A stretch of 64,000 nt of DNA from Cytophagales bacterium (lineage in GTDB: Bacteria; Bacteroidota; Bacteroidia; Cytophagales; UBA9547). The position numbers and the translations under genes are program-made. The stretch is from positions 140,303-204,302 of the forward strand of contig JAAFIH010000001.1 of assembly GCA_013297755.1 (NCBI GenBank), given 5' to 3'. Under the pieces are notes generated by a model. It saw nothing but the letters and a program-made list of their open reading frames with translations, had not been told where the DNA came from and searched no databases. This document shows, piece by piece, positions 33,035-44,141 of the stretch (its first letter is position 1; each line of letters begins with the position of its first letter).

Positions 33035-33118
33035 CTTAGAGGTTGACATCATAAGAACCAACCACTATATCCTAAGAAAGCCTTATTGAATTTATTCTTT
33101 AAGGCTTTTGTTTTTTAA
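33035..33118 (+). ncRNA. candidate ~80-nt sRNA, antisense to the 3' end of the 163-aa ORF (speculative)
   Basis: It runs from just after the candidate promoter to the hairpin aaagcctta(33077-33085)/taaggcttt(33100-33108). On the plus strand the hairpin is followed by ttgtttttt. The T tract exists only in this orientation. Confidence 0.2.
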
Positions 33119-33590
33119 TGTTTTTACGGTCGTATTTAAACATTTTACCATTTTTCCAAATCCAAATTTTTTGAATATTTGAAGAAGCAAATATTTCACC
33201 TTTCACATATCTAAATATTTCTTGGTTAGATAAAGCATGGTCGAATCTAATAACTATATTGTTTGATTGCTTGTATGCTTCTCTGATATTTCTTTTTAAA
33301 CAATTTTTTGAACCATTTTCAGCAGTTTTAAGCTCCCATATTTCATTATTCCAAAACGCATCAGGATGTTTACCTTCTTTTACACCTTTAGGCATTAATC
33401 TATTGTAAGTTTTTTTATCTGTTATATTATTTGGTAAAAGTTGTCCTTTTCCACCATAATTATCAACAAGAAACTCCAAAATGGGTTTATTTTTTTTAAA
33501 TTCTTCGCCACTATGTGTTGAATGTATTCTATATTTATTACCTTTTTGTGATTTAAAAGTTTGGTATTTAAGTTTTTTAAAGTTTTGCAT
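33099..33590 (-). CDS. hypothetical protein with PD-(D/E)XK-like nuclease motif (stand-alone toxin-like domain?)
   Basis: The spacing in GKHPDAFWNNEIWELKT fits P-D...(D/E)-x-K. The protein is lysine-rich, has no signal peptide, and resembles stand-alone CdiA-CT/REase-fold toxin domains from memory only. Confidence 0.35.
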   Translation of the reverse strand: MQNFKKLKYQTFKSQKGNKYRIHSTHSGEEFKKNKPILEFLVDNYGGKGQLLPNNITDKKTYNRLMPKGVKEGKHPDAFWNNEIWELKTAENGSKNCLKRNIREAYKQSNNIVIRFDHALSNQEIFRYVKGEIFASSNIQKIWIWKNGKMFKYDRKNIKKQKP

Positions 33591-36821: not shown

Positions 36822-37019
36822 TGTTTTAATGGTTTTGTTAATTGATGTTGCAAATAAATAGCTAAAAAATAATTGAAAAAGGCTATTTTATGTGAATGGC
36901 TTTTGTATTATACGAGTGGAGTTGGAGGGGGGAATATTGCGTGAAAATAGTAAGTATTATTTTATTTCTCTATTTATTCTTGATTATTTTTACAGATATT
37001 TGTTGTAAGTTAATAAAGT

Positions 37020-39422
37020 ATGCCAGATAATAAGCCCCACGTTAAACTCATAAATCAAAAAGAAGATTTTGTTAAGTTCACTTACAAAACAAGATTTGTT
37101 CCACCTAAACCTGTTGAAGAGGAAGAAAAGCCAAAAGATTATCGTAGAATGGCTGAAAGATTTGAATCTAGTATGGCAAGATATACCAACGAGAGAAATC
37201 TAAGAGTTTCAAATAGAACAATTGAATTACCCGTTCATATTGATTATATTGATATTCGTTTCCAAAGTCAGTTTGATTTAAGAACTTTTAGCAAACAGTT
37301 TTTATCAGTATTTGGATTAGATGCTGTTAAGCTAACTGAATTTAACCGTAGGGTTCTTTTTTCAATAGTTGATTTCGATAAATTCAATTTTCTTTTTGAG
37401 CAGATTAAATCCTTTATTTCATTTAGTAAAGGCAATACTGAAATTAAATTTGATAATCGTGTAACCTACATTGATGATTTTAGTTTCTTATCAAGTAAAG
37501 CAATTAAACAATATAAGCAGCTAAACAATGTGGTAAGACTTTCACTTTTAGAAGGGCTCTACAACTTTAACTTTACTTCTCAAATAGAAAACAACTTAGA
37601 TGCTTTCTTGCTGCAACAACAAATCACATATACATTTGATAAGCAAAATAACTCTATTGAACTACAAAATGTAAGCGAAGAAATAATCAATCAGATTGTT
37701 GACAATTTTGATATTGTTTATTCAGCTACATCTTCACTTTCAACGGTTATAGGTCCTTCCTCAGTTAAACTTCCTGAAAGGAGTTATGGCTTTACAATTG
37801 CTAATGCAGATGAAGATTTGCCTTTAATTGGTGTAATTGATACTGGTATTGATGCGAGAACGCCATTAGTTGATATAATAATTGGTTCAATAGACAAAAC
37901 AAATACAAATGCAACAGAAGATATTGCTAATCACGGAACAGCAGTAGGTGCTTTATGCTCTCTTGGTAAAAACCCATATACAGCAGACTTTAGAAATGAT
38001 TTAGTCGCAGATGCTAAACTTCTATCTTTAAAGGTACTTAATTCAAATATTGGTGCTTTACCTGATAAAGTTGTAATTGATATAATTAAAGAAGCAAAAG
38101 AACAATATCCATCAATAAAACTATTTGTGCTTACTGTAAATTATGAAGAATATAAAAAGTTTAATGAGCCAACATCTAATTATGCCTATCAATTAGATAA
38201 GTTATCTTACGAAGAAGATATATTGATTTTTATTAGTACAGCTAATAATTTGAATGCCTCAAATGATTGTAACGAATATGATCTACTATATTTTAATGAT
38301 GAAAAAGCAAATTTATGTTCACCTAGTGAAAGTATGAATAATGTTACTATTGGTGCTTCTGCAGATAATCTTGTAAATGATATATTCGTTGGTATTGCCG
38401 ATTTAAAAGAGTTTCCAACCATTTATTCAAGAACAAATCATATTGAACAATCAAGAATAATATCTAAAAGAAAAGTCAATAAACACATTAAGAAACCTGA
38501 TTTTATACAACCTGGTGGAGATTACGAAGTAAGCATGGGATTTGTAGGCACTGGTGAAAAAGCGACATTATCGGTTTTATCATCTGATCCAACAGAAAGT
38601 TTTTACAAAAGTGTTGGAACAAGTTTTTCCGCTCCATTAGCTGCAAATCTAGCAGCTAAAATTCTTAAAGAATACCCTGACTTAAATGCACAATCATTAA
38701 AGGCTTTACTCATCAACTCATGTAATGATAAACTACATTTATCTTCGGATAATGATAAAAGTATTGCCCTTGAAAAAGCTATTGGCTATGGTTTGCCAGA
38801 TGATACAAAAGCGGTGTTTTCTGATTCTAATTCAGTAACTTTCATTTTAGAAAGAGAAATTGAGCACAAAGAATTAATGGTTATACCCATAAAAGTACCT
38901 GAATACTTAAGAACTGTATCTAAGAACAAAGGTGTTTTAAAGTTCACCGCAACCCTTTGTTTTAGCTTTTTACCTGATAAAGATAATCAACTTGTTTATT
39001 GTCCTGTATTTATGGCATTTTCTATTTTTAGAAATAAAACACCTGAACAAATAAAAACTAGCTTTAGCAAAGAAGCCAAACTTAGAAACTCTTGGTCACA
39101 AGATGGTTACTCAATAAAAAATCCCCCACTTTATAGCAATGTTCAAAAAATAAGTTTTAACGTTAGCAAGGAAGATATAATTGATGAAGTTGGTACTTTT
39201 AAAATTGCAGTTCATTGTTTTATTAGTCCTAATATTAAAGCTGGTAGTAATGAAATTAGGAATCGTATCTCAACACCAAATAAATTTTCTTTAGCAATAA
39301 CAGTAGAAGAAAATCTAGCAAAAAATAAGTTAACAGGAAGATTATATAATGAAATACTGGCTATTAATACTATTGAAAATATTGGTACTGGAGAAGCTAC
39401 TGGCAATTTAGAAATAGAGTAA
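37020..39422 (+). CDS. cytoplasmic S8 (subtilisin-like) serine peptidase, IetS-like
   Basis: Catalytic triad in order: D274 (GVIDTGID), H305 (NHGTAVGAL), S535 (GTSFSAPLAA). No signal peptide. About 270 aa of unassigned N-terminal region and about 200 aa of unassigned C-terminal region. Confidence 0.85.
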   Translation: MPDNKPHVKLINQKEDFVKFTYKTRFVPPKPVEEEEKPKDYRRMAERFESSMARYTNERNLRVSNRTIELPVHIDYIDIRFQSQFDLRTFSKQFLSVFGLDAVKLTEFNRRVLFSIVDFDKFNFLFEQIKSFISFSKGNTEIKFDNRVTYIDDFSFLSSKAIKQYKQLNNVVRLSLLEGLYNFNFTSQIENNLDAFLLQQQITYTFDKQNNSIELQNVSEEIINQIVDNFDIVYSATSSLSTVIGPSSVKLPERSYGFTIANADEDLPLIGVIDTGIDARTPLVDIIIGSIDKTNTNATEDIANHGTAVGALCSLGKNPYTADFRNDLVADAKLLSLKVLNSNIGALPDKVVIDIIKEAKEQYPSIKLFVLTVNYEEYKKFNEPTSNYAYQLDKLSYEEDILIFISTANNLNASNDCNEYDLLYFNDEKANLCSPSESMNNVTIGASADNLVNDIFVGIADLKEFPTIYSRTNHIEQSRIISKRKVNKHIKKPDFIQPGGDYEVSMGFVGTGEKATLSVLSSDPTESFYKSVGTSFSAPLAANLAAKILKEYPDLNAQSLKALLINSCNDKLHLSSDNDKSIALEKAIGYGLPDDTKAVFSDSNSVTFILEREIEHKELMVIPIKVPEYLRTVSKNKGVLKFTATLCFSFLPDKDNQLVYCPVFMAFSIFRNKTPEQIKTSFSKEAKLRNSWSQDGYSIKNPPLYSNVQKISFNVSKEDIIDEVGTFKIAVHCFISPNIKAGSNEIRNRISTPNKFSLAITVEENLAKNKLTGRLYNEILAINTIENIGTGEATGNLEIE

Positions 39423-39424
39423 AA

Positions 39425-39459
39425 TAAAAAAGGATTACTTTTTTAGCAATCCTTTTTTT
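39425..39459. terminator. bidirectional hairpin shared by the convergent S8 and AAA+ genes
   Basis: aaaaaaggatt-ac-tttttta-gc-aatcctttttt begins 3 nt after the S8 stop and contains the ATPase stop codon (39435-39437). A/T runs lie on both sides. Confidence 0.5.
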
Positions 39460-40463
39460 TCTGTTTGAATCAGTTCCAGCCATTTACTCGTTTGTATTTT
39501 AGGCTGTAACTTTAATACATTTTCTGACAACTCAAACACGCTACGCTTAATAGCTGTAATCAATGTTTTTTGTATAGAATAAAAGGACAATCCCAAACTT
39601 TCATTAATACATTTTTGAGAAGTAGTTTTGTTATCAAATGTGAAATTAGAATTTGCAATCACTTTGCTTACCAATTCCGTAATTTGTTTTTTATTAGGCA
39701 ATTCCAAATCAATTGATAAATCAATTCTTCTTAAAATAGCATCATCTAACATGTCTTTTTGATTAGTAGCTGCAATCAAAATAGTATCCTGAGGCAAGTA
39801 ATCAAACAATTGTAGTAAAGTATTAACCACTCGTTTCATTTCTCCATGATCTTGTGAGTAATCTCTAATTTTACCAAGGCTATCAAATTCATCTAAGAAA
39901 ATAATACAACTTTCAGAAGCCGCTCTTCTAAATATTTTGGATAAATTTTTACTGGTTTCACCTAACTTTGAAGAAACAATAGAACCTAAATCAATAACGT
40001 ACATCATTTTTTCAAGTTCACCAGCTAAAACATAAGCAGCTAATGTTTTACCACAGCCCGATGGGCCATGCAATAAAATTTTATTTGAAACGGGTAAATT
40101 ATGCTCTCTTAAAAAGTTAATTTTTTTATGCTCCTTAATGAAATATTCTAATTCATTTTTCACACTCTCACTAGCAACTAAATCTTTCATGCGATAATCA
40201 GAAGTTAATTTTTCGAGTATAAACTCATTCACTTCTTTATCCTGTTCTCTGATTTGATGTTTTAAAGAACCAACTTGTGTAAGTCCACTTGTTTGGTGAT
40301 GGCGAATAGCGTCCTTTAAAATCGATTGCAGTTGAATTGCAAAATTTACTTTCTTAGTTTGCTTAGCATAATCTATCAATTCATTCAAAGAAGACAATAG
40401 TTTATCCTGGTCATTTTCAAGACCGTATTTCGCTATATCTTTTATGAAGTCAAATTGGCTCAC
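39435..40463 (-). CDS. classical-clade AAA+ ATPase, IetA-like
   Basis: Walker A GPSGCGKT (K139), Walker B IIFLDEFD, sensor-1 ATN, arginine pair ILRR. 342 aa with a ~120-aa helical N-domain. GTG start. Confidence 0.85.
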   Translation of the reverse strand: MSQFDFIKDIAKYGLENDQDKLLSSLNELIDYAKQTKKVNFAIQLQSILKDAIRHHQTSGLTQVGSLKHQIREQDKEVNEFILEKLTSDYRMKDLVASESVKNELEYFIKEHKKINFLREHNLPVSNKILLHGPSGCGKTLAAYVLAGELEKMMYVIDLGSIVSSKLGETSKNLSKIFRRAASESCIIFLDEFDSLGKIRDYSQDHGEMKRVVNTLLQLFDYLPQDTILIAATNQKDMLDDAILRRIDLSIDLELPNKKQITELVSKVIANSNFTFDNKTTSQKCINESLGLSFYSIQKTLITAIKRSVFELSENVLKLQPKIQTSKWLELIQTEKKGLLKK

Positions 40464-40542
40464 TATATATAATTTTCAATGTCGCAATAAAGGCATAAAT
40501 CCAGTATCCTACAATATTTTTCTGTTTTTTTCTATCCTCACC

Positions 40543-41247
40543 CTACACCTCTATAAATATATCTTGTAATAAAGAAATGTAATGAGATTCTGAAATTTTT
40601 TCGTTTTCAAACGCTTTATGCGATAGTTTCTCATAATCTCCAATTACTGTATTTTCATTTCCTTTTTTATATAATGAATTATCAAATCCAAGTTCTTCAG
40701 CTTTTTGGATAACATTGATTTGTTTCAATTCTTCATATCTTGTTTTATCTATTATTCCTAAAATAAGCAATCTGTAAATCAATGCCTTATGCGAACATTG
40801 AAAATGCTGTTCTAGCTTAAAAATAGTTTGCAATGAAATATTTTTTTCTTCAAACTCATGTTCTGGTATTTCAGCATATATTTTATCTTCTGGCAACATC
40901 AGATATATGGCAAATAAATCTGCGGCATATTCATTTTTGTCTTTTTTATCAAACAAGCCTGTTTTAGAAGTTTCAGATACAAAATCGTCTTGTACAAATA
41001 GATGATACAATTCATGACAAATCGTAAAATTTTGTCTTCCAATAGAATGGTCGCTATTTACCATCATAAACCTATGATTTCCTGTTTTTACAGCCATTCC
41101 AGAAATAGAAGATTCAGTTCCTCCTAGCAAAAAAACAGTTATCACTTTTTGTTTTTCTAAAATTTCATGAAACTTTAGTTTTTCAAATTGTTTTAAACCT
41201 GAGTTTTCTCTAAAAAGTACAGCTTGTTTTTTAATGAGATGCTCCAT
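40543..41247 (-). CDS. ImmA/IrrE family zinc metallopeptidase
   Basis: HEXXH motif as H78-ELYH, and the downstream EYAADLFAIYLMLPE typical of the ImmA/IrrE (DUF955) fold. The start overlaps the XRE stop (TAATG). Confidence 0.85.
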   Translation of the reverse strand: MEHLIKKQAVLFRENSGLKQFEKLKFHEILEKQKVITVFLLGGTESSISGMAVKTGNHRFMMVNSDHSIGRQNFTICHELYHLFVQDDFVSETSKTGLFDKKDKNEYAADLFAIYLMLPEDKIYAEIPEHEFEEKNISLQTIFKLEQHFQCSHKALIYRLLILGIIDKTRYEELKQINVIQKAEELGFDNSLYKKGNENTVIGDYEKLSHKAFENEKISESHYISLLQDIFIEV

Positions 41248-41582
41248 TACTGTGTCAGCTTTACTATTTTTAAATAATTCTTTACTATTTTTTTGAATTT
41301 GGCAATATTTTCTAAATCTGTATTGGTCAATCCCTCTGCCCTAAATGCAAAAGCCATATTGGCTGTTTTGTTATCAGATGCTTCTTCCAAAAGCTCAATT
41401 TCATCTACACCAAATAGGTCTGACATTTTTTTTAAAATAGCTACATTGGGCATTCGTATACCATTTTCATAATAACTTATCATTTCACGTTTTACCCCCA
41501 AAAATTGAGCCATATTTTCTTGATTCAATCCCAATCTCTCTCTTAATAATTTGATGTTGTTTCCTAATATTTGAGTTTCCAT
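41247..41582 (-). CDS. XRE-family helix-turn-helix transcriptional regulator
   Basis: LRERLGLNQENMAQFLGVKREMISYYENG is an HTH_3 motif. The start is set at METQILG (ATG at 41582), because the longer ORF runs through the operator and promoter palindromes. Confidence 0.85.
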   Translation of the reverse strand: METQILGNNIKLLRERLGLNQENMAQFLGVKREMISYYENGIRMPNVAILKKMSDLFGVDEIELLEEASDNKTANMAFAFRAEGLTNTDLENIAKFKKIVKNYLKIVKLTQ

Positions 41583-41608
41583 TTTATTTTGTTTATTTAA
41601 AGAAATAA

Positions 41609-41657
41609 TTGTTACAAAATTAATACAATATTTTAAAAAATTAAAATATTGTAACAA
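41609..41657 (-). promoter_or_regulatory. operator-like palindromes plus -7 box upstream of the XRE gene
   Basis: TTGTnACAA occurs at 41609-41617 and 41649-41657. The inverted repeat acaatatttta/taaaatattgt is at 41625-41635 and 41642-41652. A minus-strand TAATTTTG -7 box is at 41615-41622. Confidence 0.45.
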
Positions 41658-43438: not shown

Positions 43439-43537
43439 AATTTTAGGTGTTGTGTAATATTCAACACAACACCTAAAACAATAAACTCAATTAAAATTAA
43501 AAAATATTCATTATATTTGATTATCAATTTGCTAATT

Positions 43538-43768
43538 ATGAGAACACTCAATGTATCCATTTCTGATATAGAATACAATAAGTTTGGAATCAAACAAGAC
43601 AAACTTAATTTTACTGACTTTATTGAACTTGTGCGTAATGAACTCATGCGACAAAACTTAAACAAATGCGTTGAACTTGCACATAAATATGGGCTTTCTA
43701 AAATGACTTTAGAAGAGATTAATGATGAAGTAAAATCGGTAAGAAAAAATGCAAAAAATAATCATTGA
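43538..43768 (+). CDS. putative antitoxin of the PIN toxin
   Basis: 76 aa. It overlaps the PIN gene start by 20 nt. The ATG at 43538 is preferred over the upstream TTG. Confidence 0.5.
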   Translation: MRTLNVSISDIEYNKFGIKQDKLNFTDFIELVRNELMRQNLNKCVELAHKYGLSKMTLEEINDEVKSVRKNAKNNH

Positions 43769-44141
43769 CACCAATGTTATTGTTTCAAGTCTTATTCAAC
43801 GAAACTATCCCTTTTTTATCATTAATGAGCTTTTTATTGGTGATAAAATTCAGCTTTGTGTTTCTGATGAACTCTTGACGGAATATTATGAAGTTTTAAA
43901 AAGACCTAAGTTTTCAAAATTTCAAGACTTTTTTGTAAAAGCCGAATCATTTCTTGTCGACATCGAAACGAAAGCAACAAAATTTTATCCCACTATTATT
44001 CTTAATCTTATTTCTGACGATGATGATAATATGATTTTAGAATTAGCAGACGAGTGTAAAGCAGACTTTGTGATTACTGGCAATACATCAGACTTTACTT
44101 TTTCGTCATACAAACAAACAAAAATCTTAACGCCAAGATAA
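43749..44141 (+). CDS. PIN-domain toxin (type II TA system)
   Basis: IIIDTNVIVSSL N-terminal acidic motif, DDDNMILELA, and C-terminal VITGNTSDF. Confidence 0.8.
   Translation: MQKIIIDTNVIVSSLIQRNYPFFIINELFIGDKIQLCVSDELLTEYYEVLKRPKFSKFQDFFVKAESFLVDIETKATKFYPTIILNLISDDDDNMILELADECKADFVITGNTSDFTFSSYKQTKILTPR

Follow-up and report, generated by a model that had tools for sequence, protein, structure and literature searches.

Introduction

IetAS, in which an AAA+ ATPase (IetA) is paired with an S8 serine protease (IetS), was reportedly described as an anti-phage system by Gao et al. in 2020. We analysed a locus that encodes such a pair next to an XRE-family repressor and an ImmA-type metallopeptidase. 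The locus lies in a stretch of 64,000 nucleotides (nt) from a Cytophagales bacterium (contig JAAFIH010000001.1, positions 140,303 to 204,302), hereafter referred to as the window. In an earlier note on this DNA, the four genes were interpreted as a single conflict system in which an XRE-ImmA switch is wired to an IetAS-like core. The comparisons reported here favor a different reading, to which we assign a probability of roughly 0.6: the locus would be a chimera peculiar to this strain, formed from two known modules that are each mobile on their own, with an ietA devoid of its own promoter occupying the third-cistron place behind an XRE-ImmA switch.

In other IetAS systems, the protease IetS is toxic and IetA behaves as its antitoxin; a phage protein acts as the trigger, and the resulting abortive infection requires the protease activity (PMC13069673; 10.1101/2022.08.27.505566). 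As cited in PMC13069673, ietA and ietS were first described on the Agrobacterium Ti plasmid (pTiC58) as a plasmid-stabilizing toxin-antitoxin (TA) pair, the protease being the toxin and the ATPase the antitoxin. The ietHAS variant, in which an SNF2 helicase is added to IetAS (PMC13069673), provides a precedent for the gain of an upstream component modulating toxicity, although the genes added in the window encode a repressor and a peptidase rather than a helicase.

The XRE-ImmA half of the locus also has described counterparts. CapH/CapP-like pairs accompany diverse immune operons (Lau et al. 2022; Calloji et al. 2026), and in all of the examples of Lau et al. 2022 the CapH/CapP genes lie ahead of the operon that they regulate and are divergently oriented with respect to it. 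The peptidase domain of CapP forms a single-stranded DNA-binding groove with a C-terminal GAF domain, and a cysteine-switch loop is present in a subset of the proteins (Calloji et al. 2026). Three-component systems of the type Xre-COG2856(DUF955)-PIN-like have been reported (Makarova et al. 2009; Matelska et al. 2017, PMC5499597). ImmR/ImmA of ICEBs1 and IrrE/DdrO of Deinococcus offer an analogy, since in both cases an XRE-family repressor is inactivated by its cognate M78 peptidase.

Results

Layout of the locus

The four genes are arranged as follows, in coordinates of the window.

37020-39422, plus strand: ietS, S8 peptidase, 800 amino acids (aa)
39435-40463, minus strand: ietA, AAA+ ATPase, 342 aa, GTG start
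40543-41247, minus strand: immA, 234 aa
41247-41582, minus strand: xre as most likely delimited, 111 aa (listed as an open reading frame at 41247-41657, minus strand, TTG start, 136 aa)

All four reading frames and the spacings given in the earlier note were recovered, and each of the catalytic residues it named was present when checked in the translations. The stop codons of the convergent genes ietS and ietA are separated by 12 bp, ietA starts 79 bp beyond the stop codon of immA (spacer 40464-40542), and the stop codon of xre overlaps the start codon of immA in the sequence TAATG. Gene callers applied to three independent contigs call an xre product of 111 aa, and homologues contain 111-119 aa. 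The ATG at 41582, rather than the TTG at 41657, is therefore the most likely site of translation initiation. The helix-turn-helix (HTH) of the 111-aa form begins at about residue 6, and the 75 nt left outside the revised gene (41583-41657) correspond to a promoter/operator region. Below, the cassette designates ietS plus ietA, gene3 designates the gene usually located directly downstream from immA in relatives, and L-numbers designate the comparison loci that were fetched.

The ATPase and the protease match IetAS

The PADLOC profiles assigned the ATPase to IetA (PDLC02196, E = 9.8e-73, residues 5-316 of 342) and the S8 peptidase to IetS (PDLC02197, E = 1.5e-40, residues 182-697). By these matches the pair is IetA plus IetS, as the earlier note had proposed. 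The definition of IetAS is based on hidden Markov models (HMMs), and gene orientation is no part of it. The locus shares with described IetAS systems an AAA+ ATPase located beside a large, apparently cytoplasmic S8 protease, active sites that are intact, and matches to the PADLOC models over most of their length. The NCBIfam IteA and IteS models were also the top matches, at scores far below their equivalog cut-offs (NF042959, 210 versus 510 bits; NF042956, 109 versus 900 bits), and the pair therefore represents a distant clade of the IetAS family. Identity between the window IetA and proteobacterial IetA was 30-37%.

The IetAS census comprised 80 Bacteroidota loci (L004-L083) from many genera, in which IetA was 61-77% identical to that of the window, and eight closer relatives (84-98%). 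An S8 homologue located beside ietA on the opposite strand and convergent with it was found in 78 of the 80 loci, as well as in all eight closer relatives. The gap between the ietA and S8 high-scoring segment pairs was 11-73 bp in 72 of these 78 convergent loci. No S8 match was obtained for the two remaining loci, one of which is a contig ending just past ietA. Thus, the pairing of IetA and IetS is far beyond chance, and the linkage of the two genes across genomes agrees with this part of the earlier interpretation. The S8 gene follows ietA in the same direction on three proteobacterial plasmids (L098-L100; Agrobacterium pTi, Mesorhizobium, and Klebsiella), in a co-directional operon, whereas the window genes are convergent and appear to share a terminator. 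The tail-to-tail layout, which had been considered unusual, is the standard one in the Bacteroidota clade: convergent ietA and ietS genes form a conserved, clade-specific architecture and are no oddity of the window locus. Independent promoters are uncommon for a pair of the toxin/antitoxin type, and the regulation may accordingly differ from that of the co-directional operons.

The neighbors of IetAS vary. The cassette adjoins a type I restriction-modification system (HsdR/M/S) in L084, an AAA_21 plus RloB pair in L185, and housekeeping genes in L181 and L182. The first two cases support the notion that the two-gene cassette moves between defense islands.

XRE and ImmA belong to another family of loci

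ImmA harbors the expected HEXXH motif (H78-E79...H82, in CHELYH) and matched Pfam Peptidase_M78 (1.1e-16), PADLOC PDC-M69B near full length (2e-21), and PADLOC capP in its peptidase part only (3e-23, profile positions 38-152 of 242). In the AlphaFold2 (AF2) model of ImmA (predicted local distance difference test, pLDDT, of 93), residues ~104-234 are nearly all helical, with one short strand. The best Foldseek match was Thauera CapP (7T5T, 278 aa; E = 1e-6, TM 0.50, 176 aligned columns), followed by PprI/IrrE. No GAF domain was detected in the predicted structure, which displays a short helical C-terminal domain instead. XRE matched Pfam HTH_3 (8.6e-15), nearly the whole PADLOC capH model (1e-9), and PDC-M69A, the PDC entries of PADLOC being only candidate systems.

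The profile and structural matches uphold the assignment of XRE and ImmA to a CapH/CapP-type pair. The similarity to CapH/CapP (Lau et al. 2022; Calloji et al. 2026) includes the combination of a small HTH repressor with an M78 HEXXH peptidase and the organization as an overlapping gene pair near defense genes. In contrast to CapH/CapP, the cargo is co-directional in the window and in related loci. In addition, the window ImmA consists of 234 aa with a C-terminus predicted to be helical and devoid of GAF domain, so that the groove and cysteine-switch mechanism may not be simply transferable. The model likewise differs from IrrE, which has a GAF-like domain.

The census of the ImmA family included 80 metagenomic loci (L101-L180) and closer homologues (L088-L096), for a total of about 89 loci. 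An XRE gene adjoined immA upstream in essentially all of the loci having upstream sequence, and gene3 (~170-190 aa) was present directly downstream from immA in 55 of 59 loci. Six residues of the gene3 product are invariant (D8, D10, E41, E89, D110, and D127), among them the four acidic residues that a PIN-like nuclease should possess. Based on this pattern and on literature precedent, the gene3 product is probably PIN-like. Comparisons with Pfam, with PADLOC, and, by hhalign, with the PIN_3 protein of the window gave weak matches or none, the PADLOC candidate PDC-S70 being weakly matched. The Xre-COG2856-PIN-like systems correspond to the native architecture of the family, with xre and the M78 gene in one operon and gene3 in the fitting position; the window differs in that the third gene is deleted down to a stub of ~50 nt, with ietA in its place. 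The genes downstream from immA in individual relatives were the following, with the identity of ImmA to that of the window given for the closer homologues.

L096 (83%): Wadjet JetA/JetB, co-directional and 91 nt away, no gene3
L088 (76%): gene3, DUF2188, and E2-CBASS-like
L090 (65%): gene3, DUF2188, NUDIX, SMODS, and E2
L094 (63%): gene3 and DUF1508
L164 and L165 (no gene3): PDC-M64 candidate system
L159 (no gene3): XseA, then PDC-M64 genes

In ~40% of the ImmA-family loci, the gene immediately beyond gene3 is on the opposite strand, indicating that the XRE-ImmA-gene3 unit can stand alone. XRE-ImmA-gene3 is a widespread unit with its own operator, is often located before co-directional defense genes, and looks like an uncharacterized regulator/effector family. 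Comparison of the window with L096 gave dN/dS ratios of 0.04 for xre and 0.11 for immA, at a dS that is near saturation. These ratios point to purifying selection acting on both genes, and the switch is for this reason probably functional.

XRE and ImmA genes were adjacent to IetAS in none of the 88 other IetAS loci. The nearest relatives, L182 (IetA 98.5% identical), L185 (96.5%), and L181 (91%), contained neither gene, in unrelated contexts. An HMM of the ImmA family, built from 120 homologues and used to search ±7 kb around 85 IetAS loci, detected an M78 peptidase in a single case, L016. In this Saprospiraceae metagenome-assembled genome (L016, 1404-8026), a complete XRE-ImmA-gene3 unit, whose first two products are 54% and 46% identical to the window pair, is located 4.5 kb upstream from a convergent IetAS, with opposite-strand genes between the two modules. 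No further case of the two modules occurring together was found, and they appear to frequent the same islands unfused. Reciprocally, neither IetA nor S8 was found in the 80 metagenomic ImmA-family loci, and IetAS was absent from all of the ~89 loci of the family. XRE and ImmA thus do not belong to IetAS and are of foreign origin. The fusion was present in a single lineage, represented by eight contigs that stem essentially from one sequencing project. With regard to the inserted island suggested in the earlier note, an empty site was sought by looking up exact matches to the 182-aa SRPBCC protein encoded in the flank; all contigs returned had the same arrangement, again from one sequencing project, and no empty site was found. 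The fusion is very recent, since relatives with 96-98% identical IetA lack XRE/ImmA.

These observations bear on the proposal of the earlier note that the four genes constitute a dedicated, selected conflict system with XRE/ImmA as the integral regulatory arm of an IetAS core. Several features are compatible with this proposal: xre, immA, and ietA are co-oriented and tightly spaced, the XRE-ImmA family repeatedly heads defense cargo (Wadjet, CBASS-like, PDC-M64), both regulator genes appear to be under purifying selection, and such an arm would be in keeping with published work proposing that immune operons of various kinds are regulated by CapH/CapP-like pairs. However, XRE/ImmA is tied to other cargo elsewhere, the combination does not recur in any other locus of either census, and the near-identical IetA proteins found without XRE/ImmA argue for a very recent fusion. 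We therefore consider a dedicated four-gene system to be improbable.

The junction between immA and ietA

Homology between the window and L088 or L096 extends ~50 nt past the stop codon of immA. In L088, the same stretch contains the ribosome-binding region and the first ~8 codons of gene3. By this alignment, gene3 is reduced in the window to a stub of ~50 nt. From the other side, the window and L185 are 87% identical at the nucleotide level between 36975 and 40462 (~3490 nt, blastn), and the homology ends at the start codon of ietA. Homology of the cassette similarly begins at this codon with L181, and at most 17 nt upstream from it with L182. The junction of the two modules is thereby placed ~0-17 nt from the start codon of ietA. 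The presence of the stub suggests that the junction arose by replacement and not by ancestral design, a further point against the dedicated four-gene system.

L181, L182, and L185 share ~90 nt upstream from ietA, including a Bacteroidetes -7 box (TAnnTTTG) at position -21 or -22 before the ATG. This sequence is missing from the window, and no TAnnTTTG motif was present in the 200 nt scanned upstream from ietA. In the 79-nt spacer, the terminator scan detected no terminator, and folding revealed no hairpin (minimum free energy of -7.5 kcal/mol, z = +1.1). The most plausible sequence of events is that replacement of gene3 by the cassette deprived ietA of its native promoter, and that ietA is now probably transcribed by read-through from the xre promoter. 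The gene3 stub, the replaced upstream region of ietA, and the terminator-free spacer all suggest that the adjacency of the two modules is more than passive.

The alternative is a coincidence in a variable region. IetAS would be self-sufficient owing to an unrecognized ietA promoter, and XRE-ImmA would be an orphaned remnant regulating only itself. IetAS cassettes do adjoin unrelated, often defense-type neighbors elsewhere, as in L084, L185, L181, and L182; the XRE-ImmA-gene3 unit is able to stand alone; the two modules of L016 lie in one island and are not operonic; and the association found in the window lacks phylogenetic depth. Against coincidence, the cassette homology stops at the start codon of ietA and the -7 box of the three nearest relatives is gone, with no TAnnTTTG motif in the 200 nt scanned and no terminator after immA. 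Moreover, if IetS stays non-toxic only in the presence of IetA, transcription from upstream must feed ietA, and the xre promoter is the only recognizable one. Coincidence is, in our opinion, unlikely, although it retains appreciable weight.

The operator upstream from xre and the 5' flank of ietS

Two regulatory regions flank the coding sequences.

41610-41656, minus strand: putative promoter/operator of xre-immA(-ietA), inverted pair TGTTACA-N33-TGTAACA
36975-37019, plus strand: 5' flank of ietS, still part of the IetAS cassette (blastn homology to L185 begins at 36975)

The promoter-proximal operator site overlaps a Bacteroidetes-type -7 box, TAATTTTG (about 41615-41622, minus strand). Both half-sites, TGTTACA and TGTAACA, were invariant in six divergent XRE-ImmA loci. 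The paired motif occurred once, upstream from xre, in 12 of the 12 XRE-ImmA loci compared and in none of the IetAS-only loci compared. It was also found in its exact form in 34 of 62 further ImmA-family loci. In the part of the window from 36.8 to 42 kb, TGTWACA was confined to the xre promoter and was therefore absent both upstream from ietS and in the immA-ietA spacer. Since no operator is present upstream from ietS, this gene cannot be under direct XRE control. Control limited to ietA, with ietS convergent and devoid of operator, is not what would be expected of XRE/ImmA as the regulatory arm of a four-gene system.

The region between the two operator half-sites also contains a perfect 13-nt inverted repeat, TACAATATTTTAA-N4-TTAAAATATTGTA (41624-41653). 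This palindrome is lineage-specific and may represent either additional operator symmetry or an AT-rich chance occurrence. It was rejected as the operator, as it was not conserved in related XRE-ImmA loci, and the conserved TGTTACA/TGTAACA pair was retained instead. A similar 11-mer in the immA-ietA spacer was within chance expectation for an AT-rich genome. Scanning for sigma-70-type promoters was uninformative (26 matches versus 28.8 expected), and Bacteroidetes -7 motifs were used instead.

Upstream from ietS, the sequence TATTTTTA is a near-consensus Bacteroidetes -7 box located 35 nt before the ATG. TAnnTTTG motifs are present at -29 and -27 upstream from ietS in L181 and L182, respectively. 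The solid shared upstream sequence of ietS is limited to 45 nt between the window and L185. A conserved sequence suspected 100-150 nt upstream from ietS, in the window and L181, was rejected as the local alignment was not significant. The claim that the switch is wired to the IetAS core thus stands in part: for ietA, wiring is structurally plausible, the promoter region having apparently been replaced by the 3' flank of XRE-ImmA, whereas ietS is not wired.

Features of IetA and IetS

IetA belongs to the classical clade of AAA+ proteins (Pfam AAA, 5.7e-31) and contains Walker A (K139, GCGKT) and Walker B (D191/E192, FLDEFD) motifs and the arginine pair R245/R246. All of these residues were invariant in 20 homologues. 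IetA aligns with its homologues from residue 1, and the GTG start codon is also present in L084 and L097. The nearest relatives of known structure are the D2 domain of p97/Cdc48 and Rix7.

In IetS, the catalytic triad consists of D274 (VIDTGID), H305 (NHGTAVG), and S535 (GTSFSAP). The Pfam scan detected Peptidase_S8 (7.7e-24) and no other family, and hence no type IX secretion system (T9SS) sorting domain. No signal peptide or transmembrane segment was found (Kyte-Doolittle hydropathy in 19-aa windows, maximum of -0.49 in the first 40 residues and 1.17 overall). From its sequence, IetS looks cytoplasmic, as the earlier note had claimed. The AF2 model (pLDDT 86, predicted template modeling score 0.88) comprises N-terminal propeptide-like alpha/beta units (residues ~76-238), a disordered linker (246-254), a catalytic core bearing the triad (~258-600), a C-terminal beta-domain of the beta-sandwich type (~600-790), and a disordered acidic tail (...GEATGNLEIE). 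The best Foldseek matches were pro-forms of subtilases having a C-terminal beta-domain, such as ProN-Tk-SP (3AFG; E = 6.6e-25, 621 columns), and pro-subtilisins were among the top PDB matches. The modeled architecture resembles that of an unprocessed pro-subtilase and hints at zymogen-type control in the cytoplasm. Based on this zymogen-like model, we speculate that the target of IetA may be either the tail of IetS or its propeptide-like region. The PDB sequence search returned only generic AAA+ and subtilase relatives, and no solved IetA or IetS.

The convergent genes ietS and ietA appear to share a single terminator.

39426-39458, both strands: predicted bidirectional intrinsic terminator hairpin, common to ietS and ietA, overlapping the last codons of ietA

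The terminator scan identified a 14-pair stem followed by a T-run between the two genes. Folding energies of the RNA were -15.2 kcal/mol (z = -5.5) for the minus strand and -11.2 kcal/mol (z = -2.0) for the plus strand, and the sequence was nearly identical in L181, L182, and L185. A larger block (39393-39458) combines this terminator with the 3' end of ietS and the spacer, and has its counterpart in the same three loci.

The two proteins appear to have diverged to different extents. Identities of IetA and IetS to those of the window were 98.5% and 34% for L182, 91% and 34% for L181, and 96.5% and 90% for L185. Over 75 loci, mean identities were 66% for IetA and 37% for IetS (r = 0.40). The evolutionary rates of the two proteins are very different, and the partners seem to have been re-assorted. 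These comparisons suggest that IetS is the diversifying partner, possibly involved in sensing or specificity, or that the convergent junction is a site of recombination. At its C-terminal end, IetS has ~10 residues (GEATG[N/T]LEIE) that show little or no variation among the window, L185, L181, and L182, yet IetS of L181 and L182 is only 34% identical to that of the window. More distant relatives have tails that are acidic but different (DDELTLDL, EGEADIE). The pLDDT of the tail in the AF2 model was ~33, in agreement with disorder. The acidic tail could be an IetA-docking element, or it could just be tied to ietA in one recombination block.

The surrounding region

No integrase, recombinase, phage, plasmid, or integrative and conjugative element (ICE) gene was found within ±8 kb by Pfam annotation of L001, and the 64-kb window contained no tRNA gene. 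The locus thus differs from ImmR/ImmA and IrrE/DdrO by the absence of integrase and mobile-element genes within ±8 kb and of a DNA-repair regulon context.

A VapBC-like pair at 43517-44141, 2 kb from the island, comprises a putative antitoxin of 83 aa and, overlapping it, a PIN_3 toxin of 130 aa (E = 4e-18); the antitoxin reading frame was called as 76 or 83 aa depending on the contig. The pair is a small module of the mobile type, inserted within a cluster of YCII, DUF1569, and ECF-sigma (DUF6596) genes. On the other side of the locus, just beyond a TonB-receptor/DUF4249 pair, a 163-aa reading frame at 33099-33590 encodes a CdiA_C domain (E = 8.8e-10) with no recognizable delivery domain and may be an orphan toxin module. 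The CdiA_C reading frame and the PIN TA pair suggest that the neighborhood is a variable region.

IetAS might function here mainly in addiction or stabilization, as a TA module and not in phage defense, and XRE-ImmA would then be irrelevant. The first description of IetAS as a plasmid-stabilizing pair, as cited in PMC13069673, is in line with this possibility, as is the evident mobility of the cassette among many unrelated chromosomal contexts. Against it, homologous systems confer phage defense by abortive infection (PMC13069673; 10.1101/2022.08.27.505566), the site is chromosomal with no plasmid or ICE gene within ±8 kb, and TA and abortive-infection roles can coexist. We regard an exclusively stabilizing function as very improbable.

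Discussion

Both kinds of module found in the window are already known, and any HMM-based defense annotator would call IetAS. The convergent Bacteroidota IetAS, the XRE-ImmA-gene3 family with its operator and variable slot, and the promoter swap of ietA appear to be undescribed in the literature searched. The searches returned no paper pairing IetA with CapH/CapP and no paper joining IetA/IetS with subtilase/AAA+ mechanistic terms.

In the chimera that we favor, the first module would be a Bacteroidota-type IetAS cassette of the abortive-infection/toxin-antitoxin type, with convergent genes and one shared bidirectional terminator. The second would be a truncated XRE-ImmA-(PIN-like) switch, the third gene of which was replaced by the cassette. 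XRE would bind the paired TGTnACA operator overlapping the -7 box and autorepress xre-immA-ietA. By homology with ImmA, IrrE, and CapP, a stress or infection signal would activate ImmA, leading to cleavage of XRE. Derepression would then increase the level of the ietA transcript by read-through of the terminator-free 79-nt spacer. Transcription of ietS, which has no XRE operator upstream, would be independent and its level would stay constant. If IetA restrains or controls a toxic IetS, as reported in the literature for other IetAS systems, a phage trigger would lead to proteolysis and abortive infection. Overall, the switch would govern the IetA:IetS ratio and not the whole system.

Several considerations weigh against this interpretation. 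A weak or non-canonical promoter could be present in the 3' end of immA or in the spacer, as Bacteroidetes promoters are degenerate and the genome contains ~30% GC. The dS between the window and L096 is near saturation, and part of the divergence may predate the loss of gene3. The occurrence of the fusion in a single lineage offers no evolutionary replication showing that the coupling was selected. The predicted ImmA structure lacks the GAF domain of the CapP single-stranded DNA groove, so that an activating signal of the CapP type cannot be assumed. Finally, the outcome of induction would depend on the role of IetA: stress induction would dampen defense if IetA is purely an antitoxin and would arm it if IetA is a required ATPase.

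The content of the slot downstream from XRE-ImmA differs between loci, with a PIN-like gene in most of them, Wadjet, PDC-M64, or XseA in others, and ietA in the window. A bolder and distinctly less likely reading, which we offer as a conjecture, is that this position is a cargo-exchange slot and that selection kept the promoter swap, which placed IetA alone under a stress-cleavable repressor, the IetA:IetS ratio being regulated. Near-constancy of IetA combined with swapped IetS bodies (98.5% versus 34%) and a preserved acidic tail would fit this conjecture. If it were true, IetS would be the diversifying sensor/effector and its tail the IetA-docking element, providing a testable entry into the mechanism of IetAS.

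A more general implication is that what looks like a multi-gene "system" in a variable region can be a chimera of very recent origin, which calls for caution in guilt-by-association discovery. Beyond this locus, the comparisons reveal a large Bacteroidota clade of IetAS combining a conserved convergent architecture and a highly conserved ATPase with a protease that appears to be rapidly exchanged, as well as one XRE-ImmA family that, with its conserved TGTnACA operator, acts as a portable head for varied, mostly defense-type cargo. The window locus itself amounts to a natural experiment, in which ietA was apparently cut from its own promoter and set behind a switch while ietS would keep independent expression. 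If this is confirmed, the stoichiometry of IetA and IetS would be tunable by stress signaling.

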